DNA from: Phalacrocorax carbo
Taxonomy: Eukaryota
Assembly: GCF_963921805.1 (NCBI RefSeq)
Contig: NC_087541.1
Coordinates: 672,482-697,839, forward strand
DNA: 25,358 nucleotides
Direction of reading: 5' to 3'
Shown piece after piece: positions 1-23,340 of this stretch. Positions within the stretch are counted from its first letter, which is position 1; each line of letters starts with the position of its first letter. A program made the translations under genes and the position numbers. The notes beneath the pieces were generated by a model. It saw only the letters and a program-made list of their open reading frames with translations, was not told the origin of the DNA and made no database searches.

Positions 1-120
1 GCGCGCGGCGGGGCGGGAGGCGCTATTGGCTGGCGGCGCCGGAAGCCCCGCCCCACCCGCGCGGCGCGAAGGCGGCGATGGCGGCCGGGAGCGATCGCGG
101 CGGCCCCGGGTGAGGCGACG

Positions 121-750: not shown

Positions 751-1466
751 ACGCTGTGACAACCCCCCCCCCCACCCCGTAGGGAGCCGCCGCTGATTGG
801 AGGATCCGCGAAGGGGCGGAGACGGCGCGGGGGGGCGGGGCGAGGGGAGACCACGCCCCCCCGGCTCCGCCCCCGCCTGGCAATGGGGTGAAACCCGGCG
901 AAAATGGGGGCGGGGGGGGAGGGGAGGGGCGAGGGGGGGGCGAGGAGGAGGAGGAGGAGGAGGAGGAGGGGGGGAGGAGGAGGAGGAGGAGGGGGGGGAG
1001 GAAGAGAGGCCGCTCCCGAAGAATGGGGTGAAAAAGGGCAAAAAAAAGGGCTGAGCCCCAAAAGGGGGAAAAAAACTGGGAGAAACGGGGCGAAACGGGG
1101 CGGGATCGAGAGCGAGGAGGGGGAGGGGGGGGAGGAGGAGGAGGAGGAAGAGCAGGAGGAGGAAGAAGGAGAGGAAAAAGGCACAAAGCGGCTCGTAAAA
1201 AATGGGGTGGAAAAGGGCAAAATCAAGACTGAGCCCAAGACAGGGAAAAAACTGCTCAAAAATGGGGTGAAAAGGGGCAAAATCGAGAGCGAGGAGGAGG
1301 AGGAGGACGAGAACAAGGATGAAGATCAGGAGGAGGAAGGAGACACAAAGCGGCTCGTAAAAAATGGGGTGAAAAAAGGGCAAAATAAAGACTGAACCCA
1401 AGAAGGACAAAAAGCCGCTCAAAAATAGGGCGAAAAGGGGCAGAATCGAGAGCGAGGAGGAGGAGG

Positions 1467-2201
1467 ATGAAGAGGAGGATGAAGAGGAGGAGGATGAGAT
1501 CAGGAGAAGGGAGGAGGATGAAGATCAGGAGGAGGAAGGAGACACGAAGCCGCTCGCAAAAATTGGGGCGAAAACAGGCCAAAAAAAGGACTGAGCCTGA
1601 GAAAAGCTCTGTGAGAAACGGGGCGAAAAGGGGCAAAATCGAGAGCGAGGAGGAGGAGGAGGAAGAGGAGGAGGAAGAAGAGGAAGAAAGCACAAAGCGG
1701 CTCGTAGAAATTGGGGGAAAAAAGGGCAAAATAAAGACTGAGGCCAAGAAGGAGAAAAAGCCGCTGAAAAATGGGGCGAAAAGGGGCAAAATCGAGAGCG
1801 AGGAGGAGGAGGAGGAGGAGGATGAAGAGGAAGAAGAGGTGAAGGACCCGCCCCGGAAAAACGGGGTGAAAAAGGGCAAAAAGAGGAGCGAGAAGAACCG
1901 AGCTGTGAAAAACGGGGCGAAAAGGGTGAAATTGGAGAGGGAGAAGAAGAGGAAGAGGAGGAGGAGGAGGAGGAAGAGGAGGAAGAGGAGGAGGAGGAAG
2001 GCGACGAGCCGGCACCGGCAAAACGGGCTCAGAAAGGGCAGAAACGGGCCGAGGAGGAGGAGGAGGAGCGGGCAGGGAGGAAGGCCGAGGCCGAAGAGCG
2101 CCCGGGGGGCGGGGAAGAGGAAGAGGAGCCGGGACTCGTCCTCCTCCTCCTCCTCCTCCTCTTCCTCGCTGGAGGAGGAAGAGCGGCGCCCCCCCCGCAA
2201 G
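1467..2201 (+). CDS. HIRIP3: HIRIP3-like large internal exon (3' part): K/E/S-rich repeats [21 protein letters not shown]..., poly-Ser ...SRDSSSSSSSSSSSLEEEERRPPRK, donor AAG|GTAACC at 2202
   Basis: open frame ending at a strong donor; the Ser run followed by an acidic stretch, and the KNGV motif, resemble the HIRIP3 central region; upstream copies (about 900-1460) switch frame at A-homopolymers, so the true 5' boundary is unknown. Confidence 0.45.
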
Positions 2202-2209
2202 GTAACCAG

Positions 2210-4650
2210 TGCGCCCAGTGAGGGGGGGTTTGGGGGGCACTGGGGGCGTTTGGGGGGGTCTCAGGGGGGGTTCGGGGGGTCTGAGGGGGCGTTTGGGGCG
2301 TCTGGGGGGGGTGAGGTGGGGGTTTGGGGGGTCTGAGGGGGCGTTTGGGGGGTCTGAGGGGGGGTTTGGGGGTCTGAGGGGGCGTTCGGGGGGTCTGAGG
2401 GGGGGTTCGGGGGGTCTGAGGGGGGGTTCGGGGGTCTGAGGGGGGTTCGGGGGGTCTGAGGGGGGTTCGGGGGTCTGAGGGGGGTTCGGGGGGTCTGAGG
2501 GGGCGTTTGGGGGGTCTGAGGGGGGGTTCGGGGGTCTGAGGGGGGGTTCGGGGGGTCTGAGGGGGCGTTTGGGGGGTCTGAGGGGGGGTTCGGGGGTCTG
2601 AGGGGGGGTTCGGGGGGTCTGAGGGGGCGTTTGGGGGGTCTGAGGGGGGGTTCGGGGGGTCTGAGGGGGTGTTTGGGGGTCTGAGGGGGCGTTTGGGGGG
2701 TCTGAGGGGGGGTTCGGGGGGTCTGAGGGGGGGTTCGGGGGGTCTGAGGGGGGGTTCGGGGGTCTGAGGGGGGGTTTGGGGGTCTGAGGCGGGGTTCGGG
2801 GGGTCTGAGGGGGCGTTCGGGGGGTCTGAGGTGGGGTTCGGGGGTCTGAGGGGGGGTTTGGGGGGTCTGAGGCGGGGTTCGGGGGTCTGAGGGGGGGTTT
2901 GGGGGGTCTGAGGGGGCGTTCGGGGGGTCTGAGGGGGGGTTGGGGGGGTCTGAGGGGGCGTTTGGGGGGTCTGAGGGGGGGTTCGGGGGGTCTGAGGGGG
3001 GTTTGGGGGTCTGAGGGGGCGTTTGGGGGGTCTGAGGGGGGGTTCGGGGGGTCTGAGGGGGGGTTCGGGGGGTCTGAGGGGGCGTTTGGGGGTCTGAGGT
3101 GGGGTTCGGGGGGTCTGGGGGGGGTTCGGGGGTCTGAGGGGGGTTCGGGGGGTCTCAGGGGGCGTTTGGGGGGTCTGGGGGGGGTGAGGTGGGGTTCGGG
3201 GGGTCTGAGGGGGGATTCAGGGGGTCTGAGGGGGCGTTTGGGGCGTCTGAGGGGGGGTTCGGGGGGTCTGAGGGGGCGTTTGGGGGGTCTAAGGGGGGGT
3301 TCGGGGGTCTGAGGGGGGGTTCGGGGGGTCTGAGGGGGGGTTTGGGGGGTCTGAGGGGGGGTTCGGGGGGTCTGAGGGGGGGTTTGGGGGTCTGAGGGGG
3401 CGTTTGGGGGGTCTGAGGGGGGGTTCGGGGGGTCTGAGGGGGGGTTCGGGGGGTCTGAGGGGGCGTTTGGGGGGTCTGAGGTGGGGTTCGGGGGGTCTGG
3501 GGGGGGTTCGGGGTCTGAGGGGGGGTTCGGGGGGTCTCAGGGGGCGTTTGGGGGGTCTGGGGGGGGTGAGGTGGGGTTCGGGGGGTCTGAGGGGGGATTC
3601 ATGGGGTCTGAGGGGGCGTTTGGGGCGTCTGAGGGGGGGTTCGGGGGGTCTGAGGGGCGTTTGGGGGGTCTGAGGGGGGGTGAGGGGGGTCTGAGGGGGG
3701 GTTTGGGGGTCTGAGGGGGGGTTCGGGGGGTCTGAGGGGGGATTCAGGGGGTCTGAGGGGGCGTTTGGGGGGTCTGAGGGGGCGTTGGGGGTCTGAGGGG
3801 GGGTTCGGGGGGTCTGAGGGGGGGTTCGGGGGGTCTGAGGGGGCGTTTGGGGGGTCTGAGGCGGGGTTCGGGGGTCTGAGGGGGGGTTCGGGGGGTCTGA
3901 GGGGGCGTTTGGGGGGTCTGAGGTGGGGTTCGGGGGGTCTGGGGGGGGTTCGGGGGTCTGAGGGGGGGTTCGGGGGGGTCTCAGGGGGCGTTTGGGGGGT
4001 CTGGGGGGGGTGAGGTGGGTTCGGGGGGTCTGAGGGGGGATTCAGGGGGTCTGAGGGGGCGTTTGGGGGGTCTGAGGGGGGTTCGGGGGGTCTGAGGGGG
4101 CGTTTGGGGGGTCTGAGGGGGGTTCGGGGGGTCTGAGGGGGGGGTTCGGGGGTCTGAGGGGGGGTTTGGGGGGTCTGAGGGGGGGTTCGGGGGGTCTGAG
4201 GGGGTGTTTGGGGGGTCTAAGGGGGGGTTCGGGGGTCTGAGGGGGGGTTCGGGGGGTCTGAGGGGGGGTTCGGGGGGTCTGAGGGGGGTTGGGGGGGTCT
4301 GAGGGGGGGTTCGGGGGGTCTGAGGGGGGGTTGGGGGGGTCTGAGGGGGGGGTTTGGGGGGTCTGAGGGGGGGTTCGGGGGGTCTGAGGGGGCGTTTGGG
4401 GGGTCTGAGGGGGCGTTTGGGGGGTCTGAGGGGGGGGTTCGGGGGGTCTGAGGGGGGGTTTGGGGGTCTGAGGGGGGGTTCGGGGGGTCTGAGAGGGGGT
4501 TCGGGGGGTCTGAGGGGGGGTTCGGGGGGTCTGAGGGGGGGTTCGGGGGGTTTGAGGGGGCGTTTGGGGGCTCTGAGGGGGGGTTCAGGGGGTCTGACAG
4601 GGGGTTCGGGGGGTCTCAGGGGCGTTTGGGGGGTCTCGGGGGGGGGTTGG
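2210..4650. repeat. 20-21-bp G-rich minisatellite (GGGGGGTCTGAGGGGGCGTTT / ..GGGGTTC), about 120 copies, filling the HIRIP3 intron
   Basis: visible tandem periodicity; G-runs of 5 or more in every unit. Confidence 0.9.
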
Positions 4651-4849
4651 GAGCAATTTAGGGGATCGCTGGGTATTTAGGAGGGTCTTTAATCCTGGGG
4701 GGGGCTCAGAAGGTGAATTTGGGGGGGCGGGAGGGGACTCGGGGGGGCAGGGGGGGACTCGGGGGGGGGGCACTGGGGGGCTGGGGGGGTATCGCGGGGC
4801 GGGGCCCCGCGGGTGCAGCCTCCCACGCCCCCCCCCCGCCCCCCCGCAG

Positions 4850-5016
4850 GTGTCGGGGCGCGGCGGGGGGGGACCCCCCGGCCCTGCGGCGCCTCAAGGG
4901 GTACCTGCGGGCCTGTGGGGCGCGCCCCAACTACAAGAAGCTCCTGGGGGGCTGCCGCAGCCTGCGCGAGAGGGTCGGGGTGCTGCGGGGGGAGCTGCGG
5001 GCCCTCGGCCTCACCG
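4850..5016 (+). CDS. HIRIP3: HIRIP3 exon: (R)CRGAAGGDPPALRRLKGYLRACGARPNYKKLLGGCRSLRERVGVLRGELRALGLT(G), C-terminal conserved HIRIP3 domain
   Basis: strong acceptor (CCTCCCACGCCCCCCCCCGCCCCCCCGCAG ending at 4849); matches human RLKRYxRACGxxRNYKKLLGSCCSHKERLSILRAELEALGMKG; first of five tandem copies of the G|GTGCGG donor at 5017; phase with neighbouring exons is off by 1 nt. Confidence 0.7.
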
Positions 5017-5340
5017 GTGCGGGGCGGGGGGCTGCGGTGGGGGGCTGCGGGGGGAGCTGCGGGCCCTCGGCCTCACCGGTGCGGGGCGGGGGGCTGCGGT
5101 GGGGGGCGGGAGGGGGGGCTGCGGGGCCCTCGGCCTCACCGGTGCGGGGCGGGGGGCTGCGGTGGGGGGCGGGAGGGGGGGCTGCGGGGGGAGCTGCGGG
5201 CCCTCGGCCTCACCGGTGCGGGGCGGGGGGCTGCGGTGGGGGGCGGGAGGGGGGCTGCGGGGGGAGCTGCGGGCCCTCGGCCTCACCGGTGCGGGGCGGG
5301 GGCTGCGGTGGGGGGGCTACGGTGGGGTGGGAGGGGGCTG
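4988..5340. repeat. 62-74-bp tandem repeat of the HIRIP3 exon 3' end plus splice donor (GGAGCTGCGGGCCCTCGGCCTCACCG|GTGCGGGGCGGGGGGCTGCGGTGGGG), 5 copies; a degenerate sixth copy (donor GT mutated to AT) lies at about 5690-5750
   Basis: direct sequence comparison. Confidence 0.85.
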
Positions 5341-6480
5341 CGGGGGCTGAGAGGGGGAACTTGGGGGGCTACGGTGAGTGGGAGGGGGGATGTGGGGGCT
5401 ACGAGGAGTGGGAGGGGGGATGTGGGGGGCTATGGGGGGTGGGAGGGGGGATATGGGGGACTACGAGGGGTGGGAGGGGGGACGTGGGGGGCTACGGCGG
5501 GTGGGAGGGGGGACGTGGGGGGCTGCGGCGTGTGGAAGGGGGAACTTGGGGGGCTACAGGGGGTGGGAGGGGGAATTTGTGGGGTGGGAGGGGGATTTTG
5601 GGGGGCTACAGGGGGTGGAGGGGGAATTTGTGGGGTGGGAGGGGGGATATGGGGGGCTACGGGGGGTGGGAGGAGGGATGTGGGGGGAGCTGCGGGCCCT
5701 CGGCCTCACCGATGCGGGGCGGGGGGCTGCGGGGGGCGGGAGGGGGGATGTGGGGGGTGACAGGGGGAACTTGGGGGGCTACAGGAAGTGGGAGGGGGGA
5801 TATGGGGGGCTACGGGGGGTGGGAGGGGGGATGTGGGGGGACTACGGGGGGTGGGAGGGGGGACGTGGGGGGCTGCGGCGTGTGGGAGGGGGAACTTGGG
5901 GGGCTACAGGGGGTGGAGGGGGAATTTGTGGCATGGGAGGGGGGCTGTGGGGGGCTACCAGATGTGGGAGGGGGGTTGTGGGGGGTGGGAGGGGGGGATA
6001 TGGGGGGTGGGAGGGGGACTTTGGGGGGGCTACAGGGGGTGGGAGGGGGGGATGTGGGGGTGGGAGGGGGGCTGTGGCAGGGGGCAATTTGGGAGGTGGG
6101 GAGGGAGGATATGGGGCCTACAGGGGGTGGGAGGGGGATTTTGGGGGGCTACAGGGGGTGGAGGGGGAATTTGTGGGGTGGGAGGGGGATTTTGGGGGGC
6201 TACCAGATGTGGGAGGGGGGTTGTGGGGGGTGGGAGAGGGGATATGGGGGGCTACGGGGGGGTGGGAGGGGGGGCTGCGGGGGGCAGGAGGGGACTTTCG
6301 GGTGTGGGAGGGGGCTGGGGGGGATTTGGGGGGTCATCGGGGGGTTTGGGGGGGTCTGCGGGGCGCAGGAGGGGGTTTTGGGGGGGATTTTGAGGGGTTG
6401 GAGGGGCGTTTTGGTGGGCAGGAGGGGGGATTTGGGGGGGCTGGGAGGGGGTTTGGGGGCGGCCTAGAGGGGTCGGGCGG
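5340..6480. repeat. about 30-bp G-rich minisatellite (GGCTACGGGGGGTGGGAGGGGGGATGTGGGG), about 35 copies
   Basis: visible periodicity. Confidence 0.85.
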
Positions 6481-6739
6481 GGTTGGGAGGGGGTTTGGGG
6501 TGCACTGGAGGGGTCACTGGGGGGGGTGGGGGGTCATTTTGGGGTACGGGGGGCATTTTGGGGGAGGGGGGGGGGCTGAAATGGCTTATTCCACACGCTC
6601 GGGGGCGGGGGGGGAGCGATTTGGAGGGGGGGGTCTGAGGGGGCGCTGAATGAGGCTGGGGGTGGGGGGGTGTGGGGGGGGTTACTGGGGGGGGGGTGTG
6701 GCTTTTTGGGGGTGCCTTTGACCCCTCCCCACCCCCCAG

Positions 6740-6839
6740 GACCCCCCCTCTTTGGCTCGCTGCCGGCGCCTCAAACGCCGCCGGGAAGAAGCGGCCGAGC
6801 TGGCGGCGCTCGACGTCGCCAACATCCTCCCCACGCCCG
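6740..6839 (+). CDS. HIRIP3: HIRIP3 exon: DPPSLARCRRLKRRREEAAELAALDVANILPTP(G)
   Basis: acceptor ...CCCCACCCCCCAG ending at 6739 (in-frame TGA at 6719 excludes upstream acceptors); donor G|GTAACG at 6840; matches human TPSLGKCRALKEQREEAAEVASLDVANII. Confidence 0.75.
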
Positions 6840-6975
6840 GTAACGACACCCCCCACCCCCCCCAAAAAAAACACCCCCCACCCCCCAAAAAAAACACCCC
6901 CCACCCCCCAAAAAAAAACACCCCCCAAAAAAACACCCCCCAAATCCTTACCCTCCCCCTGCTTTAAACCCACAG

Positions 6976-7113
6976 GTCGAACCCGGAGGCGAAACCCGTG
7001 GAACCCCCAAACCCCCCCCGGGGAGAAAATCGGGGGGTCCCCCCCCCCCTCCCCCCCCAGTCGACTGGTCCCGGCTTCGGGGCGTCATTAGCTCCGACGG
7101 CGAGAGCGAGTGA
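6976..7113 (+). CDS. HIRIP3: HIRIP3 terminal exon: (G)RTRRRNPWNPQTPPGE..[frame shift in poly-C]..DWSRLRGVISSDGESE stop (TGA 7111-7113)
   Basis: acceptor CCCACAG ending at 6975, in phase with the previous exon; matches human RPRRRTAWNP..PPGE and the C-terminus PDWSHMRGIISSDGESN; the two conserved blocks are in frames differing by 1 nt across the C11/C8 runs at 7039-7058. Confidence 0.7.
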   Translation, partial: VEPGGETRGTPKPPPGRKSGGPPPPPPPVDWSRLRGVISSDGESE

Positions 7114-7148
7114 CCCCCCCCCCCCCCCCCACCAACCCCCTCCCCAAA

Positions 7149-7154
7149 ATTAAA
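7149..7154 (+). terminator. ATTAAA polyadenylation signal 36 nt downstream of the HIRIP3 stop codon
   Basis: variant poly(A) hexamer in an AT-rich patch (7140-7200) directly after the TGA at 7111. Confidence 0.5.
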
Positions 7155-7260
7155 AACTCCTCGTTTCCAAGGTTTTATGCCTCAAAAAACGTGGGGTTTT
7201 TTTTGAGTTTTTAAGTGGTTTTGGCGGGGGGTTAAAGATGGGGGGGGGTGGGGGGGGGGG

Positions 7261-7445
7261 TTAATACTTGCGCTGGTGAAGAAAAAAACCGGGGGGTCTT
7301 TTTGGGGGGGGGGGGTCGTCTCCTTCCAGCTGGAAAAGGTCCCTCCCCGTCCGGAGAATCTGTTCTTCTAATTTTTTATGGCGTTTCATATCGGATAAAA
7401 CTTTATCGAGGCGCGCCTCCCGCTTCTGCCCGCGGCTGGGGGGGC
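7261..7445 (-). CDS. PAGR1: PAGR1 exon 3 (terminal): (G)[47 protein letters not shown]..[frame shift in C12 run]..LHQRKY stop
   Basis: acceptor CCTCCAG with phase matching exon 2; matches human [39 protein letters not shown]; the conserved C-terminal ...QRKY-stop is reached only in a frame shifted by one nt after the G12 run at +7306-7317; TAA is the complement of 7261-7263. Confidence 0.75.
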
Positions 7446-7554
7446 CTGGAGGGGGGGCACGGCGGGGTTGGAGGCGGCGCCGCCCAGGTTGGGGGTTTCC
7501 CGCCCAAAATGGGGGGGGGGGGTTGGGGAGGGGGTTTGGGGAGGGGGGCCTTAC

Positions 7555-7637
7555 CCGGGGCTCGGCGGCGGTCGATGAGGGAGCTCTTAGGGGCGACGGG
7601 CTCGTCGTCGAAGTCGAACTCGGTGGCGACGGGCGGC
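7555..7637 (-). CDS. PAGR1: PAGR1 exon 2: [28 protein letters not shown]
   Basis: acceptor CCTCCAG (complement of 7638-7644); donor G|GTAAGG (gt is the complement of 7554-7553); matches human [24 protein letters not shown]. Confidence 0.8.
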
Positions 7638-7805
7638 CTGGAGGGGGGAGAGGGGCCTTACCCGGGGGTCGGGGGCGGCGGGGGGCGGCGGGGGGCGGCG
7701 GGGGGCACCATCGGGAGGGGGGTCGCGAGGCGTGAGAGCTGCGGGGGGGGATTCTGGAAGTAAGGAAGCGCGAGGCGGGGAGTCGCGAGGTGGACGAGTC
7801 GTGGA

Positions 7806-9230
7806 GTGAGTGAACCGCCAGGGAGGTCGTCGAGCCGCGAGGGAAATGGCGACCTAAGCCGTGAGGTAAATCGCGAGGGAAATCGCGAGGGAAATCGCGA
7901 GGGAAATCGGGAGGGAAACGGCGAGGGAAATGGCGAGGGAAACGGCGAGGGAAATGGCGAGGGAAATCGGGAGGGAAACGGCGAGGGAAATCGGGAGGGA
8001 AACGGCGAGGGAAATGGCGAGGGAAATCGGGAGGGAAACGGCGAGGGAAACGGCGAGGGAAATGGCGACCTAAGCAGTGAGGTAAATCGCGAGCTAAGCC
8101 ATGAGATAAATCATGAGGTAAATCGCGAGCTAAGCCGTGAGGTAAATCGTGAGGCCGTGAGGTAAATTGTGAGGTAAATCATGAGGTAAATCGTGAGGCC
8201 GTGAGGTAAATTGTGAGGTAAATCATGAGGTAAATCGTGAGGCAAGTCGCGAGCTAAGCCGTGAGATAAATTGTGAAGTCAATCATGAGGTAAATCGCGA
8301 GCTAAGCCATGAGGTAAATTGTGAGGTAAATCGTGAGGTAAATTGTGAGGTAAATCATGAGGTAAATCGTGAGGCCGTGAGGTAAATTGTGAGGTAAATC
8401 ATGAGGTAAATCATGACGCAAGTCGCGAGCTAAGCCGTGAGATAAATTGTGAGGTCAATCATGAGGTAAATCGCGAGCTAAGCCGTGAGGTAAATCATGA
8501 GGTAAATCGCAACCTAAGCCATGAGGTAAATTGTGAGGTAAGCCGTGAGGTAAATTGTGAGGTACATCATGAGGTAAATCGTGAGGCCGTGAGGTAAATT
8601 GTGAGGTAAATCATGAGTTAAATCGTGAGGTAAATCGCGAGCTAAGCCGTGAGGTAAATTGTGAGGTAAATCGTGAGGTAAATCGCGAGCTAAGCCGTGA
8701 GGTAGACTGTGAGGTAAATCGTGAGTTAAATCGTGAGGTAAATCACGAGCTAAGCCGTGAGGTAAACTGTGAGGTAAATCGTGAGGTAAATCGCGACCTA
8801 AGCCATGAGGTAAACTGTGAGGTAAATCGTGAGGTAAATTGTGAGGTAAATCATGAGGTAAATCATGAGGCCGTGAGGTAAATCGTGAGGTAAATCGTGA
8901 GGTAAATCGTGAGGTAAATCGTGAGGTAAATCGTGAGGTAAAGCGTGAGGTAAAGCGTGAGGTAAAGCGTGAGCTAAGCCGTGAGATAAATTGTGAGGCA
9001 AATCATGAGGTAAATCGCAAGCTAAGCCGCGAGGTAAATTGTGAGGTACATCGCGAGCTAAGCTGTGAGGTAAATCGCGAGGTAAGCCGTGAGGTAAACT
9101 GTGAGGTAAGCCGTGAGATAAATTGTGAGATAAATCGTGAGCTAAGCCGTGAGCTAAGCCGTGAGGTAAATGGCGAGGTAAATGGCGACCTAAGCCGTGA
9201 GGTAAACAGCGAGGTAAAACGACAACATTT
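7806..9230. repeat. 12-bp minisatellite (CGAGGGAAATGG / GTGAGGTAAATC), about 118 copies, in PAGR1 intron 1; followed by an A-rich tract at 9235-9275
   Basis: visible periodicity; the unit is a multiple of 3, which explains the long REGNGEGN pseudo-ORF. Confidence 0.9.
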
Positions 9231-9308
9231 CCCCTAAAAAAAAAAACCACGCCAAAAAAAAAAAAAAAAAAAAAGGGTGGGTGGGATGTGGGGAATTTTT
9301 GTCTCTTA

Positions 9309-9669
9309 CTTCTCCTCCTCCTCCTCCTCGCTCTCGGGCTGCCCGGCCGAGCGCGGCTCCTCCTCGCTGTCGGGCTCCGGGGTGGGCGCGCGCCGGGGCA
9401 GCGGGACGTGCCGCAGCGGGAGGCTGCCCTGGTCGGCGATGAGCTCGTAGAGCCGCCGGATATCGGCGGGAGGGGGAAGCCATCCCTCGGGGGGTTCCCC
9501 TTCCTCCTCGCTCCAAGGAACCCCCCAGTCCTCCTCCTCTTCCTCGCCGAGGGGCGAGGGGGGCGGGCGGCGGGCGGCTCTCGCCGGCGCTGGCGGCCGG
9601 GGGGTCGGTGACGGCGAGGGAGCGGAGCCCCGACGTCACCTCCGACGCGTCCTCCGGCGGCGCCGTCAT
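9309..9669 (-). CDS. PAGR1: PAGR1 (PA1) exon 1: [22 protein letters not shown]...[78 protein letters not shown]
   Basis: reverse-strand translation matches human PAGR1 ([58 protein letters not shown]); ATG is the complement of 9667-9669; donor AAG|GTAAGA (gt is the complement of 9308-9307); an internal 1-nt frame inconsistency lies near 9540-9600. Confidence 0.78.
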
Positions 9670-9789: not shown

Positions 9790-10880
9790 TCCTGAGGTGG
9801 TGCTGCCGCCCTCAAGGCCACCGTTTTAATGTCTAAGGTGGTCCTGGTGACCCCCTTGGCCACCAAATTGAGCCCCCCAGGGCCACCCTGGTGTCCCCAC
9901 GGCTACCAAATTCTCCCTGTAGCCACCAAATTGAGCCCTGAGGCAATCTGACCACCTACAATGGCCACTGTTTTAAGGTCTAAGGTGGTCCTGGTGACCC
10001 CGTGGCCACCTAATTCAGCTTTGAGGTGATCCTTGTGGCCACCAAATTGAGCCCAAGGCCACCCCGGTGTCCCCACGGCTACCAAATTCTCCCTGTGGCC
10101 ACCAAATTGAGCCCTGAGGCAATCTGGCCACCTACAATGGCCACCGTTTTAAGGTCTAAGGTGGTCCTGGTGACCCTGTGGCCGCCAAATTGAGCCCTCA
10201 GGTCACCAAATTCTCCCTGTGGCCACCAAATTGAGCCCTGAGGCGATCAGCCACCTACAATGGCCACCGTTTTAAGGTCTAAGTTAGTCTTGGTGACCCC
10301 GTGGCCACCAAATTCAGCCCTGAGGTGATCCTTGTGGCCACCAAATTGAGCCCTCAGGCCACCAAATTGAGCCCTGAGGTGAACCCGATGACCCCGTGGC
10401 CACCAAGGTGAGCACTGAGGTGGTCCTGCTGCCCTCAAGGCCACCGATTTAAGGTCTAAGGTGGTCCTGGTGTCCCCGTGGCCACCAAATTCAGCCCCGA
10501 GGCCACCAAATTGAAGCCTGAGGCGATCGGGCCACCTACAATGGCCACCGTTTTAAGGTCTAAGGTGGTCCTGGTGACCCCGTGGCCACCTAATTCAGCT
10601 TTGAGGTGATCCCTGTGGCCACCAAATTGAGCCCCGAGGTGGTCCTGGTGACCCCGTGGCCACCAAATCGAGCCCCAAGGCCACCCCAGTGTCCCCGTGG
10701 CCACCAAGGTGGGTCCTGAAGTGGTCCTGCCACCTCAAGGCCACCATTTAAAGGTCTAACGTGGTCCTGGTGTCCCCATGGCCACCAAATTGAGGCCTGA
10801 GGCCACCAAATTGTCCCTGTGGCCACCAAGTTGAGCCCTGAGGCGATCGGGCCACCTACAATGGCCGCCATTTTAACGCC
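9790..10880. repeat. complex higher-order satellite (about 270-bp units built from GGCCACCAAATTGAGCCCTGAGG and CTACAATGGCCACCGTTTTAAGGTCTAAGGTGGTCCTGGTGACC), about 4 copies
   Basis: repeated blocks visible at 9960, 10130, 10250, 10530 and 10850. Confidence 0.75.
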
Positions 10881-10899
10881 TGAGGTGATCCCGCCAGCC

Positions 10900-13479: not shown

Positions 13480-15500
13480 CCGGCGGCACTTGGGGGGCAG
13501 CGGCACTTGGGGGGCAGAGCCGGGGCCCTTGGGGCACTTGGGGCTCGGTAGGACTTGGGGGGCAGAGCCGGGGCCCTTGGGGCACTTGGGGCTCGGTAGG
13601 ACTTGGGGGGCAGAGCCGGGGCCCTTGGGGCACTTGGGGGTCGGTAGGACTTGGGGGGCAGAGCCGGGGTACTTGGGGCTCGGTAGGACTTGGGGGGCAG
13701 AGCCGGGGCCCTTGGGGCACTTGGGGCAGTTTAGGACTTGGGGGGCAGAGCCGGGGCCCTTGGGGCACTTGGGGCTCGGTAGGACTTGGGGGGCAGAGCC
13801 GGGGCCCTTGGGGCACTTGGGGCTCGGTAGGACTTGGGGGGCAGAGCCGGGGCCCTTGGGGCACTTGGGGGTCGGTAGGACTTGGGGGGCAGAGCCGGGG
13901 CCCTTGGGGCACTGGTGGGGCAGACTCTGGGTCTCTTGGGGGGCAACGCTTGGGTCACTTATGGGATCTGTGGGGCACTTGGGGGGGGACCCTGGGGCAA
14001 CTGTGGGGCAGAGCCTAGATCTTAAGTTCTCTTTAGCACTTGTGCTAAAGCACTTGGGGGGCAGCGCTTGGGTCTCTTGGGGGGCAGCGCTTGGGTCTCT
14101 TGTGGGATCTGTGGGGCAGAGCGTGGGGCACTTGGGGGGGCCCCATGGTCCCTTTTGGGAGAGAGCCTGAACCTTGGTCACTTGTGGGGCAGAGCCGGGG
14201 GCACTTGGGGGGCAGCAAGGCTTGTGGGGCAGAGCCTGGACCTTGAGTTCTCTTTAGCACTTGTGGGGCGGAGCGTGGGGCACTTGTGGGGCAGCGGGGC
14301 TTGGGGGGAGGGCCTGGACCCCAGGGACTCTTGTGGGGCAGCGCTTGGGTCGCTTGTGGATTCTGTGGGGCAGAATGTGGGTCACTTGGGGGGCAGAGCC
14401 TGAACCTCTGGAGCACTTGTGGGGCAGGGTGTGGGTCCCTTGGGGGCAGCGTGTGGGTCTCTTGTGGGGCAGTGCTTGGGTAGCTTGTGGGATCTGTGGG
14501 ACCGAGTGTGGGTCACTTGGGGGGCAGAGCCTGGGGCCCTGGGTCACATGTGGGGCAGGGTGTGGGTCACGTGTGGGGCAGGGCCTGTACCCTTGGGTCA
14601 GTTGTGGGGCAGGGCGTGGGTCACTTGGGGGGCAGAGCCTGTACCCCTGGGTCAGTTGTGGGGCAGGGCGTGGGTCACTTGGGGGGCAGAGCCTGTACCC
14701 CTGGGTCAGTTGTGGGGCAGGGCGTGGGTCACGTGTGGGGCAGAGCCTGAACCTTGTGTCACGTGTGGGGCAGGGCGTGGGTCACGTGTGGGGCAGGGCC
14801 TGAACCTTGGGTCACTTGTGGGGCAGGGTGTGGGTCACGTGTGGGATCTGTGGGGCTGAGTGTGGGTCACTTGGGGGGCAGAGCCTGGGGCCTTGGGTCA
14901 CTTGGGGGTCAGAGCCTGGTTCAGTTGTGGGGCAGGGTGTGGGTCACGTGTGGGGCAGAGCCTGTATCCCTGGGTCAGTTGTGGGGCAGAGCCTGCTTCA
15001 GTTGTGGGGCAGGGCCTGTATCCCTGGGTCACTTGGGGGGCAGAGCCTGCTTCAGTTGTGGGGCAGGGCCTGTATCCCTGGGTCACTTGGGGGGCAGAGC
15101 CTGCTTCAGTTGTGGGGCAGAGCCTGTATCCCTGGGTCACTTGGGGGGCAGAGCCTGGTTCAGTTGTGGGGCAGGGCGTGGGTCCCTTGTGGGGCAGAGC
15201 CCGAACCTTGGGTCACTTGGGGGGCAGGGCCTGGGTCACTTGGGGGGCAGAGCCTGCTTCAGTTGTGGGGCAGGGCATGGGTCACGTGTGGGGCAGAGCC
15301 CGAACCTTGGGTCACTTGGGGGGCAGGGCCTGGTTCAGTTGTGGGGCAGGGTGTGGGTCACGTGTGGGGCAGAGCCCGAACCTTGGGTCACTTGGGGGGC
15401 AGGGCCTGGTTCAGTTGTGGGGCAGGGCGTGGGTCACGTGTGGGGCAGAGCCCGAACCTTGGGTCACTTGGGGGGCAGGGCGTGGGTCACGTGTGGGGCA
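13480..15500. repeat. about 60-bp minisatellite family (CTTGGGGCACTTGGGGCTCGGTAGGACTTGGGGGGCAGAGCCGGGGCC, then GGGTCACGTGTGGGGCAGAGCCTGAACCTTGGGTCACTTGTGGGGCAGGGCGTG), about 30 copies
   Basis: visible periodicity. Confidence 0.85.
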
Positions 15501-15638
15501 GAGCCTGCACCCAAGCCACCCCCCCCGCCAGCAGCAGCACTCGGGTGACCCGTGGGGCCCCCCTGCGCCCCGTGGGGCAGCCCTGGCTGACGCGCGGCTC
15601 TGCCCCACGGCCGCTGTGGGGCGGGGGCAGGCGCCGCC

Positions 15639-15758
15639 ATGCCCTGGGGACGCCCGCGGGGCCCCCCCGGGGCCGGGCTCTTCCTGCAGGGGGACCCCGA
15701 GCGGCTCTTCGGGGACCTGCGCGAGATCGGCCACGGCAGCTTCGGCGCCGTCTACTTC
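15639..15758 (+). CDS. TAOK2: TAOK2 coding exon 1: start codon in gccgccATGc Kozak context, [40 protein letters not shown], kinase subdomain I (Gly loop)
   Basis: ATG at 15639; translation matches the TAO kinase N-terminus ([22 protein letters not shown] in human); phase-0 donor GTGAGT at 15759. Confidence 0.88.
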
Positions 15759-15764
15759 GTGAGT

Positions 15765-17290
15765 GCCCCACAAGTGCCCCCCCGCGCCCCACGGGTGCCC
15801 CCACGCACACCCCCGAGCCCCACAAGTGCCCCCACAAACACCCCGTGCCCCACGGGGGCCCCCCCGCGCCCCACAAGTGCCCACCACACACACCATGTGC
15901 CCCACAGAGGCCCACCCGTGCCCCACAAGTGCCCCCACAAACACCCCGTGCCCCACGGGGGCCCCCCCGCGCCCCACAAGTGCCCCCACACACACCCCCG
16001 GGTGCCCCCCTGCTCCCCACAAGTGCCCTCACAAACACCCGGTGCCCCCCTGCTCCCCACAAGTGCCCCCACAAACACCCCGTGCCCCACGGGGGCCCCC
16101 CCGCGCCCCACAAGTGCCCGCCACACACACCATGTGCCCCACGGGGGCCCACCCGTGCCCCACAAGTGCCCCCACACACACCCCCGGGTGCCCCCCTGCT
16201 CCCCACAAGTGCCCCCACACACACCCCCGTGCCCCCCGGATGCCCCCCTGCGCCCCACAAGTGCCCCACACACACACCCCGCGCCCCACGGGGGCCCCCC
16301 CCACGGCCCCCCCCATGCCCCCACACACACCCCGTGCCCCACGGGTGCCCCCCCGTGCCCCCACTCACACCCCCGCGCCCCACGGGTGCCCCCCACACAC
16401 ACCCCGCGCCCCACGGGTGCCCCCACATGGGTGCCTCATAGGTGCCCCCCTGCGCCCCATGAGTGCCCCTCCGCGCCCCATGAGTGTCCCCACACCCCCC
16501 TGAGCCCCACAAGTGCCCCCACAAACACCCCGTGCCCCATGGGGGCCCCCCCGCGCCCCACAAGTGCCCCCACACACACCCCCGGGTGCCCCCCTGCTCC
16601 CCACAAGTGCCCCCACAAACACCCGGTGCCCCCCTGCTCCCCACAAGTGCCCCCACAAACACCCCGTGCCCCACGGGGGCCCCCCCGCGCCCCACAAGTG
16701 CCCCCACACACACCCCCGGGTGCCCCCCTGCTCCCCACAAGTGCCCCCACAAACACCCGGTGCCCCCCTGCTCCCCACAAGTGCCCCCACAAACACCCCG
16801 TGCCCCCCGGATGCCCCCCTGCGCCCCACAAGTGCCCCCCACACACACCCCGCGCCCCACGGGGGCCCCCCCACGGCCCCCCCCATGCCCCCACACACAC
16901 TCCGTGCCCCACGGGTGCCCCCCCCCCACCCCCCACAAGTGCCCCCCCACACACCCCACACCTCACGGGTGCCCCTCCCGCGCCCCACGGGTGCCCCCCC
17001 GTGCCCCCACTCACACCCCCGCGCCCCACGGGTGCCCCCACACACCCCGCGTCCCACAAGTGCCCCCACATGGGTGCCTCATAGGTGCCCCCCCGCGCCC
17101 CATGAGTGCCCCACACCCCCCCACACACCCCCGTGTCCCACGGGTGCCCCCCCCACACACACCCCGTGCCCCACAGGTGCCCCCACACACACTCTGCGCC
17201 CCACGGGTGCCCTCAAACACACCCCCGTGCCCCACAAGTGCCCCCTACACACCCCCCGCGCCCCCCAAGTGCCCCCCGCGCCCCCCGTCT
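15765..17290. repeat. about 50-bp C-rich minisatellite (CCCCACAAGTGCCCCCACAAACACCCCGTGCCCCACGGGGGCCCCCCCGCG) filling TAOK2 intron 1
   Basis: visible periodicity. Confidence 0.85.
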
Positions 17291-17310
17291 GTCCGTCCCT
17301 CCCCCCGCAG

Positions 17311-17382
17311 GCGCGGGACAGGCGGACGAGCGAGGTGGTGGCCATCAAGAAGATGTGCTACGGCGGGAAGCAGTCCAATGAG
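17311..17382 (+). CDS. TAOK2: TAOK2 exon 2: ARDRRTSEVVAIKKMCYGGKQSNE (VAIK catalytic lysine)
   Basis: polypyrimidine tract plus CAG acceptor ending at 17310; GTGGGA donor at 17383; in phase with exon 1; matches ARDVRNSEVVAIKKMSYSGKQSNE. Confidence 0.9.
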
Positions 17383-17384
17383 GT

Positions 17385-17935
17385 GGGAGGCCCCGCCCCC
17401 GGGTGGGGAGGCCCCGCCCCTTCCCCTCCCGGGTGGGGAGGCCCCGCCCCTTCCCCTCCCGGGTGGGGAGGCCCCGCCCCTTCCCCTCCCGGGTGGGGAG
17501 GCCCCGCCCCTTCCCCTCCCGGGTGGGGAGGCCCCGCCCCTTGCCCTCCCGGGTGGGGAGGCCCCGCCCCCAGAGAGGCAGGCCCCGCCCCCTTTGCCCC
17601 CCTCCAGGGTGGGGAGGCCCTGCTCCCCTTTCCCCTGATGGGAGACCCCGCCCCCAGAGAGGCAGGCCACGCCCCCCTTTTCCCCTGGGTGGGGAGGTCA
17701 CGCCCCCTCCCCCCTGGGTGCAGAGACCCCGCCCCCAGAGAGGAAGGCCCCGCCCCCTTTGCCCCCCTCCTGGGTGCGGAGACCCCGCCCCCCTTTTCCC
17801 CCGGGTGCGTAGGCCACGCCCCCCGGGTGCAGAGACCCCGCCCCCAGAGAGGGAGGCCCCGCCCCCTTTGCCCCCTCCTGGGTGGGGAGGCCCCGCCCCA
17901 CGCCGGCCCCGCCCCACGCCGGCCCCGCCCCACAG
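17385..17935. repeat. 30-bp repeat CCGGGTGGGGAGGCCCCGCCCCTTCCCCTC, about 17 copies, each with a consensus Sp1 GC box; fills TAOK2 intron 2
   Basis: visible periodicity; GGCCCCGCCCC in every unit. Confidence 0.85.
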
Positions 17936-18037
17936 AAGTGGCAGGACATCGTGAAGGAGGTGCAGCTGCTGCAGCGCCTGCGTCACCCCAACACCATCGA
18001 GTTCAAGGGCTGTTACCTGCGCGGCCACACGGCCTGG
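17936..18037 (+). CDS. TAOK2: TAOK2 exon 3: [34 protein letters not shown]
   Basis: acceptor CACAG ending at 17935; donor GTGAGC at 18038; phase 0; LRHPNTI and GCYLR..HTAW match TAOK2. Confidence 0.9.
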
Positions 18038-18059
18038 GTGAGCCCCCCACGTGTGGGGC

Positions 18060-18720
18060 GGGGGCGGGGGCCCTCCTTCGGGGGGTCCTGGGGGGCGGCG
18101 GGACCCACAGGAGGGGCTGGGGGCTCCCTTGGGGGATGTAGGGGGCGTCTTGGGGGGCAGCGGGGCTCGTAGGTGTGGGGTGAGGGGGTGTCGGGACCCA
18201 TAGGTGTGGGGCTGCGGGGTTCCTTGGGGGCTGTAGGGGGGGTGTTGGGTGGCAGCGGGACCCACAGGAGGGGCGGGGGCGTTTTTTGGGGGGTGTTGGG
18301 ACCCACAGATGTGGGGCACGGGGACAGTCGGGAGGCATGAGACCCATACATATGGGGCTGGGGGATTATCAGGACTCACAGATGAGGGTCAGGGGAGCAG
18401 CTGGGGGGTGCCAGGACCCACAGATGTGGCGCGGGGGGCAGTTGGGGGGCACCAGGACCCCCAGATGTGGGGCAGGGGGGCAGTTGGGCGGTGCAAGGAC
18501 CCCCAGATGTGGGGCAGGGGGGCAGTTGGGGGGTGCCAGGACCCACAGATGTGGCGCAGGGGGGCAGTTGTGGGCTAGTTGGGAAACACAGATGTGGGGC
18601 GGGGGACAGTTGGGCGGTGCCAGGACCCCCAGATGTGGGGCAGGGGGGCAGTTGGGCGGTGCCAGAACCCACAGATGTGGGGCAGGGGGGCAGTTGGGAG
18701 GCACGGGCCCCATAACCGGG
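18060..18720. repeat. about 60-bp repeat (GGACCCACAGATGTGGGGCAGGGGGGCAGTTGGGCGGTGCCA), about 9 copies, in TAOK2 intron 3
   Basis: visible periodicity. Confidence 0.8.
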
Positions 18721-18850
18721 CCCTGGTGGCGCTTTGACAGTGGGGCAAACCCCCCATAGCGCGGCCCTGACGTGGGGTCGGGCCCTGCCCCACGGCAAGA
18801 CTTGGGGGGCAGCTGTGGGGCAGGCGCTGACCCCTCTCTCCCCCCCCAAG

Positions 18851-18896
18851 CTGGTCATGGAGTATTGCCTGGGCTCGGCCTCCGACCTGCTGGAGG
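18851..18896 (+). CDS. TAOK2: TAOK2 exon 4: LVMEYCLGSASDLLE plus 1 nt of a split codon
   Basis: acceptor AAG ending at 18850; donor G|GTGAGT at 18897; identical to human LVMEYCLGSASDLLE. Confidence 0.9.
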
Positions 18897-19006
18897 GTGA
18901 GTGGCGGCGCCGTGGGGCGGCAGCGCCGTGGGGCGGCGGCGCCGTGGGGCGGTGCCGTGGGGCGCCCCACGGCTGCCCCTGCCCCACGCCGCTCCTGCCC
19001 CCCAAG

Positions 19007-19103
19007 CGCACAAGAAGCCGCTGCAGGAGGGGGAGATCGCGGCCATCACGCACGGGGCGCTGCGGGGCCTGGCCTACCTGCACGGCCACGACGTCATCCA
19101 CAG
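19007..19103 (+). CDS. TAOK2: TAOK2 exon 5: (A)[31 protein letters not shown](R), catalytic-loop HR
   Basis: acceptor CCAAG ending at 19006 completes the split Ala codon; donor AG|GTGTGT at 19104; phase consistent with exons 4 and 6. Confidence 0.88.
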
Positions 19104-19109
19104 GTGTGT

Positions 19110-21010
19110 GACCCACGGCGCGACCCACGGCTGCCCCGCGGCGCGGCCCGGGGCTCGCTCTGCCCCATGGTGCGACTCACGGCATGACCCACGGCGCGGC
19201 CCGGGGCTCGCGCTGTCCCTCCTCTGCCCCACGGCGCGGCCCGGGGCTCGCGCTGTCCCTCCTCTGCCCCACAGTGTGACCCACGGCGCGGCCCGGGGCT
19301 CGCGCTGTCCCTCCTCTGCCCCACGGTGTGACCCACGGCGCGGCCCGGGGCTCGCGCTGTCCCTCCTCTGCCCCACGGTGTGACCCACGGCGCGGCCCGG
19401 GGCTCGCGCTGTCCCTCCTCTGCCCCACGGTGTGACCCACGGCGCGGCCCGGGGCTCGCGCTGTCCCTCCTCTGCCCCACGGTGTGACCCACGGCGCGGC
19501 CCGGGGCTCGCGCTGTCCCTCCTCTGCCCCACGGCGCGGCCCGGGGCTCGCGCTGTCCCTCCTCTGCCCCACGGCTGCCCCACGTCGTGACCCACAGCAC
19601 GGCCCAGGGCTTGCTCTGCGCCACAGCGCGACCCACAGCTGCCCCACAGCACAGCCCAGGGCTTGCACTGTCCCTCCTCTGCCCCACGGCGCGACCCCCG
19701 GCTGCCCCACAGCACAGCCCAAGGCTTGCACTGTCCCTCCTCTGCCCCACGGCACAACCCGGGGCTCGCTCTGCCCCATGGCTGCCCCATGGCGCGACCC
19801 ACGGCCGCCCCGTGGCGCAGCCCGGGGCTCACACTGTCCTTCCTCTGCCCCACGGCTGCCCCATGGCGTGACCTGGGGCTCGCGCTGTCCCTTCTCTGCC
19901 CCACGGCGTGACCCACAGCGCAGCCCGGGGCTCGCTTTGCCCCACGGCACGACCCACGGCGCAGCCTGGGGCTCACACCGTGATTCTGACCCACGGCTGC
20001 CCCACGGCGTGACCCACAGCTTGCGCTGTCCTTTCTCTGCCTCGCGCCTGCCCCACAGCACAACCCACGGCTGCCCCACAGCGCGACCCAGGGCTCACAC
20101 TGTCCCTCTTCTGCCCCATGGCTGCCCCACGGCACACCCTGGGCCTCGTGCTGTCCCTTCTGTGCCCCACGGCTGCCCCATAGCGTGCCCCGGCCTCTGC
20201 CCGCCCCACATCTGCCCCACATTCGCCTGTCCCTCCGCGTGTGTGTTCCCGGCGCCCCACGGATCCCCTCCCCCACCCCACTGATCCCCCTTTCTCTGCC
20301 CCACCGGCCCCTCCCCCGCCCCACTGATCCCCCTCCCCCACCCCACCGGCCCCTCCCCCCACTGGCCCCCCTTTTCCCACCCCCTCCCCTTGACCCCTCT
20401 GCTGCTGCTCCCCTCCCCCACCCTGTTGACCCCTCCCCCGATTCCTCCCCTCCCCCACTGACCCCCCTTCCCCCACTGACCCCTCCCCCACCCCGACCCC
20501 TCCCCCACTGACCCCTTCCCCCCACCGACCCCTCCCCGACCCCTCCCCCACTGACCCCCCTTCCCCCCACCAACCCCTCCCCCACCCCCGACCCCTCCCC
20601 TCCCCCACTGACCCACCTACCCCACCGACCCCTCCCCCACCCTGTTGACCCCTCCCCCGACTCCTCCCCTCCCCCACTGACCCCCTTCCCCCACCGACCC
20701 CACCCCGACCCCTCCCCCATTGACCCCCTTTTCCCCCCCCACCCTTCCCTCCCTCCTCCCCTGCCCCACCCCTCCCCCACCCCGCTGCCCCTCCCCTTTT
20801 TTCCCCGCCCCCTCCCCCCACCGGCCCCTCCCCCACCACTGACCCCTCCCCCACCCACCCCCCCCCCGCCCCATTGACCTCCCTTTTCCTCCCCCCACCC
20901 CCCCTTCCCCACCCTTTCCCCCCGGCCCCCCCACCCTTTCCCCCCGGCCCCTCCCCCACCCCCGCCCCTCCCCCACCCCGCCCCTCCCCCCGCCCCTCCC
21001 CCCGCCCCTC
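19110..21010. repeat. TAOK2 intron 5: about 60-bp repeat (TGACCCACGGCGCGGCCCGGGGCTCGCGCTGTCCCTCCTCTGCCCCACGGTG, about 14 copies, 19110-20200), then a C-rich CCCCTCCCCCACC array (20200-21010)
   Basis: visible periodicity. Confidence 0.8.
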
Positions 21011-21026
21011 CCCCGCCCCCCTTTAG

Positions 21027-21140
21027 GGACGTCAAAGCCGGCAACATCCTGCTGACGGCGCCGGGCGAGGTGAAACTGGGCGATTTCGGGTCGGCCTCCG
21101 TCGTGGCGCCGGCCAATTCCTTCGTGGGGACGCCCTATTG
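21027..21140 (+). CDS. TAOK2: TAOK2 exon 6: (R)[37 protein letters not shown](W), catalytic loop, DFG, activation segment
   Basis: acceptor TTTAG ending at 21026; donor TG|GTGAGG at 21141; RDVKAGN and KLGDFG are TAOK2-type (TAOK1/3 have DIKAGN and KLADFG). Confidence 0.9.
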
Positions 21141-21202
21141 GTGAGGGAGGCGCCCCTCCCCCTTCCCCTCCGCCCCCACACTTGTGGGGCTCAGCCCCAT
21201 AG

Positions 21203-21515
<313 letters not shown>

Positions 21516-21524
21516 GTGCGCAGA

Positions 21525-23340
21525 GACCCCCCCCCCCAAATCCCCCCCGCCCCCCCACCCCGCCCCCCAACCCCCCGCCCCCCCCCCGCGCCCCCAAACC
21601 CCCCCCCCGCCCCCCAAAACCTCCCCAAACCCGCCCCCTGGGGCCCCAAACTGCCTCAGAATGGCCCCAAAACCCCCCCCAAACCACCCTCCAGACCCCC
21701 AAACCCCCCCCCCAAACCCCCCCCGCGCCCCCCCAAACCCCCCCGGGCCCCCCAAACCCCCCCGGCCCCCCCCAAACCCCCCCCGCGCCCCCAAAACCTC
21801 CCGAACCCACCCTCGAATGCCCCAAACTGCCTCCGAATGGCACCAAACTGCCTCAAAATCCCTCCCCAAAACCCCCCCAGACCCCCCCCAAATCGCACCC
21901 TGAAACCCCCCCGGCCCCCCCAAACCTCCCTGAGCCCCCCCCCAGCCCCCCCCGGCCCCCCCAAACCTCCCCAAAACCCCCCCCCAGAATCCCCCAAACT
22001 CCCTCAAAATTCCCCCAAAGTCCCTCCCAACCCCTCCCCCACCCCCCAGACCCCTCCCCCACCCCACAGGCCCCTCCAGACCCCTCCCCACCCCCCAGAC
22101 CCCTCCCCCACCCCACAGGCCCCTCCCAGACCCCTCCCCCACCCCCCAGACCCCTCCCCACCCCCCAAACCTCTCCCAGACCCCTCCCCCACTCCCCAGA
22201 CCCCTCCCCCACCCCCCAAACCCCTCCCGGACCCCGCCCCCACCCCCCGGCTGCCCCTCTCAGACCCCTCCCCCACCTCCCAGACCCCTCCCCCACCCCC
22301 CAAACCTCTCCCGGACCCCTCCCCCACCCCCCGGGCCCCTCCCGGACCCCTCCCCCACCCCCAGACCCCTCCCGGACCCCTCCCCCACCCCCCAAACCCC
22401 TCCCAGACCCCTCCCCCACCCCCCGGCCGCCCCTCTCAGACCCCTCCCCCACCTCCCAGACCCCTCCCCCACCCCCCAAACCCCTCCCGGGCCCCTCCCC
22501 CACCCCCCAGACCCCTCCCCCACCCCCCGGGCCCCTCCCCCACCCCCCAGACCCCTCCCGGACCCCTCCCCCACCCCCGAAACCCCTCCCGGACCCCTCC
22601 CCCACCCCCAGACCCCTCCCAGACCCCTCCCCCACCCCCAGACCCCTCCCCCACCCCCCAGACCCCTCCCCCACCCCCAGACCCCTCCCGGACCCCTCCC
22701 CCACCCCCAGACCCCTCCCAGACCCCTCCCCAGACCCCTCCCGGACCCCTCCCCCGCCCCCCAGACCCCTCCCCCACCCCCCAGACCCCTCCCGGACCCC
22801 TCCCCCACCCCCCAGACCCCTCCCGGACCCCTCCCCCACCCCCCAGACCCCCTCCCCCACCCCCCAGACCCCTCCCGGACCCCTCCCCCACCCCCCGGGC
22901 CCCTCCCCCACCCCCCAGACCCCTCCCCCAGACCCCTCCCAGACCCCTCCCCCACCCCCCAGACCCCTCCCCCACCCCCCAGACCCCTCCCGGACCCCTC
23001 CCCCACCCCCCGGGCCCCTCCCCCAGACCCCTCCCCCACCCCCCAAACCCCTCCCGGACCCCTCCCCCACCCCCCGGGCCCCTCCCCCACCTCCCAGACC
23101 CCTCCCCCAGACCCCTCCCAGACCCCTCCCCCACCCCACAGGCCCCTCCCAGACCCCTCCCCCACCCCCCAGACCCCTCCCCCACCCCCCGGGCCCCTCC
23201 CCCACCTCCCAGACCCCTCCCCCAGACCCCTCCCAGACCCCTCCCCCACCCCACAGGCCCCTCCCAGACCCCTCCCCCACCCCCCAGACCCCTCCCCCAC
23301 CCCCCGGGCCCCTCCCCCACCCCCCGGCCGCCCCTCCCCC
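21525..23340. repeat. C-rich 20-33-bp minisatellite (CCCCTCCCCCACCCCCCAGACCCCTCCCGGAC), about 70 copies, filling TAOK2 intron 8
   Basis: visible periodicity. Confidence 0.85.

Follow-up and report, generated by a model that had tools for sequence, protein, structure and literature searches.

False gene losses have been described from bird assemblies in regions rich in guanine and cytosine (GC-rich), where documented false indels and frameshifts follow GC content (Kim et al. 2022, Genome Biol 23:204, PMC9516821). Here we analysed a stretch of 25,358 nt from Phalacrocorax carbo contig NC_087541.1 (positions 672,482 to 697,839; hereafter the window), a GC-rich avian locus that carries HIRIP3 on the plus strand, PAGR1 on the minus strand and kinase exons of TAOK2 on the plus strand. 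As in the published cases, one-base indels break conserved open reading frames (ORFs), and annotation truncates the gene, marks it as partial or garbles it, as has happened to PAGR1 of stork and sparrow. The errors in that study were verified by read mapping, whereas the run lengths at this locus are those of the assembled consensus, and it was mainly older Sanger and Illumina assemblies that were judged there against long-read ones. Comparison of the window with orthologous sequences suggests that HIRIP3 and PAGR1 are most probably intact genes, in which the consensus would carry single-base over-calls at homopolymers, rather than genes being lost.

Three further systems resemble this locus. 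Residual homopolymer errors that cause frameshifts, and that are exposed by orthologs, are described in three reports on long-read assemblies (PMC12007338, PMC8812927, PMC9262707), although the genomes treated there are small or bacterial. The "hidden" genes of avian dot chromosomes (PMC12954441) share with this locus very GC-rich exons, introns made of imperfect tandem arrays and, in the adjacent intron, repeats of the end of an exon with its donor ("exon stuttering"). That study deals with repeat instability and gene loss, not with coding frameshifts, and HIRIP3, PAGR1 and TAOK2 are unmentioned in it. Finally, unitary pseudogenes are likewise conserved single-copy genes that carry a frameshift in their syntenic position, in this case the convergent pair of HIRIP3 and PAGR1. 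They differ from the genes described here, where constraint is not relaxed and neither stops nor splice-site losses are present.

The original prediction for this DNA had placed six breaks, each of 1 nt, in HIRIP3 and PAGR1, and had read them as assembly indels, not as signs of pseudogenes. Four of the six are real, one of them at a different site, and all four consist of one base too many; for these, assembly indels are the best-supported explanation. The remaining two, both in PAGR1, were counting errors. The three real breaks in the 3' part of HIRIP3 concern the following features.

2189 to 2196, plus strand: run of eight Cs (C8) before the donor AAG|GTAACC, claimed site of the first break; read in the poly-Ser frame, the exon has a phase-0 end
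4850 to 5016, plus strand: HIRIP3 exon encoding VSGRGGG / DPPALRRLKGYLRACGARPNYKKLL..LGLTG, with a phase-1 donor (..CTC ACC G|GT)
4865 to 4879, plus strand: G8 (4865-4872) and C6 (4874-4879), likeliest site of the +1 break claimed at the C8
6740 to 6839, plus strand: HIRIP3 exon encoding (G)PPSLARCRRLKRRREEAAELAALDVANILPTP(G), in which the CHZ domain begins
6742 to 6748, plus strand: C7, site of the second +1 break, confirmed
6976 to 7113, plus strand: last HIRIP3 exon, with the stop at 7111-7113
7039 to 7058, plus strand: C11, T and C8, site of the third +1 break, confirmed, with the extra C in either run

A frame shift does separate the poly-Ser tail of the large HIRIP3 exon from the conserved DPPALRRLK, as predicted, but the C8 at 2189-2196 is probably not its site. 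The donor after this run (..CGC AAG|GTAACC) already has phase 0 when the exon is read in the poly-Ser frame, and the intron at the homologous junction is in phase 0 in both ostrich (..ACG AAG|GTAAGG ... CAG|GGC) and sparrow (..GGG AAG|GTGAAA ... CAG|GAC). The C8 is therefore probably correct as assembled. Removing a base from it restores the frame too, but needs a non-conserved phase-2 junction. Entered in phase 0, the exon at 4850 begins VSGRGGGG, and the frame switches within 4865-4879. The little owl protein reads VSGRGG-DPPAL across this junction; the cormorant sequence follows it in frame 2 up to VSGRGG and in frame 3 from GGDPPAL. From this alignment the extra base probably sits in the G8 at 4865-4872 or the C6 at 4874-4879, and with one G less in the former the junction reads ..RRPPRK|VSGRGGGDPPALRRLK... 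An upstream AG at 4817-4818 was considered as an alternative 3' splice site for this exon and rejected, being in the wrong phase.

The second break falls where it had been predicted. The phase-1 donor at 5016 needs codons that start from 6742, whereas the conserved PPSLARCRRLK frame starts at 6743, and between that donor and the conserved frame the C7 at 6742-6748 is the only run. A phase-1 junction after the LGLTG exon is common to ostrich and sparrow DNA. With six instead of seven Cs the product is identical to owl LGLTGPPSLARCRRL.

The third break is equally real, and again +1. In the last exon, GRTRRRNPWNPQTPPGEKIGGS is encoded in frame 3 and PPPVDWSRLRGVISSDGESE, followed by the stop, in frame 1. 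The frame switch must follow TCC at 7038-7040, which places the extra base in the C11 or the C8, and removal of one C from 7039-7058 gives the length of owl GASPPPPRPVDW. Since three +1 shifts add up to zero modulo 3, the 3' ORF as assembled and spliced canonically (2130-7113) stays open until its natural terminus. In this product some 120 residues, among them the CHZ motif, are garbled, and the last 20 residues are correct.

PAGR1 has a single break, in its first exon. Its gene model comprises the following features.

9310 to 9669, minus strand: PAGR1 exon 1, ATG at 9669..9667, donor GAGAA|GTAAGA at 9310|9309, phase 2
about 9553 to 9600, minus strand: interval that contains the exon 1 break; G6 at 9558-9563 is its longest run, with C4/G4 at 9551-9554 immediately beyond its lower end
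7555 to 7637, minus strand: PAGR1 exon 2, phase 2 at its start and phase 1 at its end, in frame across either junction
7261 to 7445, minus strand: PAGR1 exon 3, one intact frame, stop at 7263..7261
7304 to 7315, minus strand: G12 (C12 on the coding strand), encoding D-P-P-P-P; no break

In exon 1 the ATG and an 11-residue motif share one frame, and everything from EEEEEDW onward, including the whole PAXIP1_C domain, is shifted by +1. No ATG occurs in the shifted frame of this exon. In albatross, ostrich and penguin, one frame runs through the whole of exon 1. The claim of one base too many in this exon therefore stands; its assignment to the G6 at 9558-9563 is not provable, though this run, judged by its length, is a plausible site. 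The break is bounded only to about 9553-9600 because the DNA of the acidic linker between the two blocks is not alignable to penguin. Removing one base anywhere in 9553-9600 yields a PAGR1 of the length of the stork protein. As assembled, PAGR1 consists of 37 correct residues followed by out-of-frame sequence up to a stop in exon 2. A passerine-style alternative N-terminus that would legitimise the shifted frame was considered and rejected, as SLHSLSLTPPP of wagtail is homologous to the 11-residue motif and in the same frame.

From the EEEEEDW block the PAGR1 frame is continuous through both introns to the QRKY-stop (exons 9669..9310, 7637..7555 and 7445..7261), and all introns are GT-AG. A phase mismatch between exons 1 and 2, near 9309 and 7637, had been claimed because an AAG|GT donor had been assumed. 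The donor is GAGAA|GTAAGA, whose AA is completed to an AAG Lys codon by the G at 7637. A GAGAA|GT or GAAAA|GT donor is likewise found in PAGR1 of penguin, albatross and ostrich. The break claimed at the G12 in exon 3 does not exist either: the frame is continuous, and GAC-C12 aligns without a gap to a penguin contig that also has 12 Cs. By comparison, the annotated PAGR1 of the stork Ciconia boyciana leaves the frame at the homolog of this run, and its C-terminus matches an alternative frame of exon 3 here. In the sparrow Ammospiza caudacuta, the ATG block and the domain block of PAGR1 exon 1 are in different frames, the shift falling within runs of C8-C9 (minus strand, about 18300-18450 of the locus stretch examined), and NCBI calls the protein partial.

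The shifted coding blocks are under constraint. Codon pairs were derived by tblastn, and the HIRIP3 values come from two passerines only, the ostrich pairing including one spurious high-scoring segment pair. Across the shifted blocks, the pairwise ratio of nonsynonymous to synonymous substitution rates (dN/dS, omega) is 0.05-0.22. Downstream of its break PAGR1 has an omega of 0.05-0.14 against albatross, penguin and ostrich, and its four lineage-specific residue changes are within the range of intact orthologs. For the HIRIP3 segments, each taken in its own frame, omega is about 0.2 against the two passerines, and 37/37 alignment-invariant residues and the natural stop are kept. The conserved domains lie downstream of the breaks: PAXIP1_C (PF15364) in PAGR1 is matched over the full-length profile with 140 bits, and the CHZ motif (PF09649) in HIRIP3 with 30.2 bits, against a cut-off of 23.3 bits. 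Neither nonsense codons in the proper frames nor non-GT-AG junctions were found in HIRIP3, PAGR1 or TAOK2.

Homologous frame shifts are absent from ostrich, sparrow, albatross and penguin DNA and from the owl protein. A programmed frameshift or transcriptional slippage was rejected, as the shift is not conserved in these orthologs. Unitary pseudogenes are disfavoured on two counts: the omega values and the retained invariant residues show no relaxed constraint, a test that is insensitive to very recent loss, and additional lesions in the form of in-frame nonsense codons or lost splice sites are absent.

Further breaks are probably present in the 5' part of HIRIP3, which contains the following features.

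78 to 109, plus strand: HIRIP3 exon 1, ATG at 78-80, donor GG|GT in phase 2
783 to 2201, plus strand: large K/E-rich repeat exon, with an open mod0 frame between 1387 and the AAG|GT donor (2201)
1372 to 1377, plus strand: A6, probable additional +1 break (mod1 to mod2)
1581 to 1587, plus strand: A7 or neighbouring GGCC, where another +1 break is probable (mod2 to mod0)

The N-terminus MAAGSDRGG resembles MAAAAAPSGGDR of Pseudopodoces, where the donor is also in phase 2. Judged by frames, stops and the positions of NG[VA]K motifs, the coding-like frame of the large exon runs from mod0 through mod2, mod1 and mod2 back to mod0. This exon has an ARGDHA motif in common with Pseudopodoces, and in ostrich the homologous repeat exon is a single ORF some 800 aa long. 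In the cormorant exon there are four or five frame changes besides, two of them supported by sister repeat units. One of these is at the A6 at 1372-1377, where alignment of paralogous repeats shows NGVKKGQNKD-stop against NGVEKGKIKTEPK in the sister units, the extra A being present in that unit only. The other is at 1581-1587, where hand comparison with the repeat unit at 1183 shows one base extra. On this evidence the large exon probably carries breaks at both of these A-runs. Other changes are model-dependent, and may fall near the G7/G8 at 968-998 and the A8/A7 at 1040-1075, with a possible phase problem between exons 1 and 2 near the G7 at 829-835.

The homopolymers named in the original prediction all exist, namely C8 at 2189-2196, C7 at 6742-6748, C11 at 7039-7049, C8 at 7051-7058, G6 at 9558-9563 and the G12, the last 2 nt away from the stated 7306-7317. 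That five of six breaks sit at homopolymers was an overstatement of what such runs mean here. The window holds 572 G/C runs of at least six (one per 44 bp, 15% of bases), so that a run near any given site comes cheap. The association is firmer for the breaks in HIRIP3 that can be resolved to 10-20 nt, where 3/3 lie inside runs of at least six. The three 3' exons contain nine such runs, four of them of at least eight, and as 16% of their bases are in runs of at least six, the probability of this by chance is about 0.004. An association between breaks and runs is predicted by sequencing error and by real slippage alike, and does not separate the two.

TAOK2 serves as a control gene in the same window.

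15639 to 24871, plus strand: kinase-domain exons of TAOK2, 11 exons with 1191 coding nt, no frame break

The contrast drawn earlier with TAOK2 was borne out, its 11 exons being in one frame with GT-AG introns throughout. They contain eight G/C runs of at least six and none of at least eight, which makes this gene a weak control. Its cleanness fits a length-dependent error process, and is weakly informative.

All four breaks, and the two well-supported ones upstream, consist of a single extra base. At the relocated first break and at the second and third in HIRIP3, the 1-nt offset is at or next to a homopolymer, and the interval of the PAGR1 break contains the G6. The flanks are conserved at each of the four, and deletion of one base at each yields proteins collinear with owl HIRIP3 and with stork and penguin PAGR1. 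We favour assembly error because the shifted blocks are constrained, other lesions are absent, and comparable breaks are found in stork and sparrow PAGR1. The window looks long-read derived, since tandem arrays of kilobase scale are resolved in it. Long-read consensus would be weakest at homopolymers, and coverage and quality may drop in GC-rich, G-quadruplex-prone sequence, with run lengths one base too long as the result. Each extra base would then shift the downstream conserved coding block by +1. Over-calls of this kind would affect G/C homopolymers and probably also the A-runs of the large HIRIP3 exon. The raw reads would be expected to disagree with the consensus run lengths. The case is probably an ordinary one of consensus error at homopolymers in an avian region that is hard to sequence.

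Several observations weigh against this explanation. The longest coding run, the G12, appears correct, and runs of six to eight are wrong. Lesions cluster in HIRIP3: 0/6 7-mers are broken in TAOK2 versus 3/5 runs of at least seven in the 3' exons of HIRIP3 (p about 0.06), and errors or mutations therefore concentrate in one gene. Real replication slippage also prefers homopolymers. Furthermore, pairwise dN/dS would also be compatible with genes inactivated only very recently, and dS, at 0.9-1.1, is close to saturation.

It is unlikely, to our mind, that the extra bases are real, that is, genuine slippage frameshifts in HIRIP3, PAGR1 or both that have produced very recent unitary pseudogenes or null alleles. 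This would account for the conserved core and CHZ domain of HIRIP3 being out of frame as assembled, for the early loss of frame in PAGR1, and for possibly at least four more frame changes in the large HIRIP3 exon next to a clean TAOK2. Genes of dot chromosomes have also been reported as unstable and prone to loss (PMC12954441). The same study, however, found no pseudogene remnants of the lost genes. Constraint on both genes is not relaxed, and no stop or splice lesion accompanies the shifts. Several independent indels need time, in which changes at invariant residues are expected, and none is present. All well-resolved events are one-base insertions, whereas neutral indels are biased towards deletion. 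PAGR1 is, moreover, essential in mouse. The more specific proposal that the run lengths are correct, and that very recent +1 slippage in the HIRIP3 and PAGR1 tracts represents gene inactivation in progress on an unstable GC-rich micro- or dot chromosome, is a little less probable again. One break could, under it, be bypassed by a duplicated ("stuttered") donor.

Slighter still is the chance of a mixed case, with an assembly error in PAGR1 and a HIRIP3 that is truly decaying or differently structured, the K/E repeat "exon" being partly intronic. Such a division is suggested by the distribution of the inferred inconsistencies, 7-8 of 8-9 of which fall in HIRIP3, by the uncertain 5' model of this gene, and by the NCBI models of passerine HIRIP3, which skip or truncate the repeat region. 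It fits poorly with the three 3' breaks: ostrich and sparrow share the boundaries and phases of the exons concerned, the products of these exons match the owl protein, and the segments show an omega of about 0.2. In ostrich, moreover, the repeat exon has been kept as a single ORF. Least credible, and very improbable, is a correct sequence in which alternative splice sites rescue the frame: the GT at 5037 and the duplicated donor at 5079 would both enter exon 6740 in phase 0 and in frame with DPPSLARC.., and the exon end with its donor is copied several times in the intron, but this would add 7 or 21 unconserved residues, would replace a phase-1 junction and an LGLxG|xPSLARC conserved from ostrich to passerines and owl, and would be of no help for the relocated first break (no alternative acceptor exists there, the AG at 4817-4818 being out of phase), the third HIRIP3 break or the break in PAGR1.

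If HIRIP3 and PAGR1 are intact and the consensus is in error, checks on stop codons or ORF integrity would pass the garbled HIRIP3 protein, and PAGR1 would be annotated as partial, truncated or lost, as in the stork and sparrow models. This homopolymer artefact can undermine reports that GC-rich genes of birds have been lost or evolve rapidly. If the runs are real, the window would offer a rare snapshot of a broadly conserved chromatin cofactor at the onset of its loss.

The genes were identified from repaired conceptual proteins, and their closest relatives are birds throughout (albatross, penguin and stork for PAGR1, little owl for HIRIP3, gull for TAOK2). The highest identities in protein databases were 89% for PAGR1, 80% for HIRIP3 and 80% for TAOK2, with no sequence of the same species among the matches. 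PAGR1 extends from the ATG at 9669..9667 to the stop at 7263..7261 on the minus strand, and is 86-89% identical to penguin and albatross PAGR1. HIRIP3 extends from the ATG at 78-80 to the stop at 7111-7113 on the plus strand, and alignment with owl, passerine, turtle and mammal HIRIP3 shows that the C-terminal tail DWSxxRGxISSDGES is present. TAOK2 was recognised by its Pkinase domain (209 bits) and a top match to a TAO2-like protein of Larus with 80% identity, and is collinear with TAOK2 proteins of other birds. The convergent order of HIRIP3 and PAGR1 is also found in sparrow, ground tit and ostrich. Only 147 nt separate the two convergent stops (7113-7261), implying 3' untranslated regions that are very short or overlap.

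By its composition, the locus is of the avian dot-chromosome or microchromosome type. GC content is 66-79% across most of the window, with a strong G skew at 1-9 kb. Imperfect tandem arrays dominate the introns and intergenic DNA (120-709, 2219-4651, 7860-9218, 9857-10891, 13505-17276 and 22022-24617), with units that include a 40-bp unit in 15 copies, a G-rich 21/42-bp unit in 117 and a 12-bp unit in 115. An ORF scan of 10.9-15.6 kb gave nothing but repeat-derived ORFs.

Tandem copies of the end of the HIRIP3 exon at 4850-5016 and of its GT donor are found in the next intron (4977-5315), at 5039-5080, 5176-5217 and 5249-5290, and a degenerate copy is found at about 5690-5712. These intronic copies constitute extra donor sites that are capable of maintaining the frame. 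Past the kinase domain of TAOK2 (23527-23706), the protein is extremely rich in R/A/P/G and D/E (..VVARLLRRARAAAPPPRRRGLGG..DDDDDDEEDDDDDEEE). Although this part differs widely from the mammalian sequence, it is collinear with TAOK2 of Caloenas, and it looks like GC-driven divergence rather than a frame problem.

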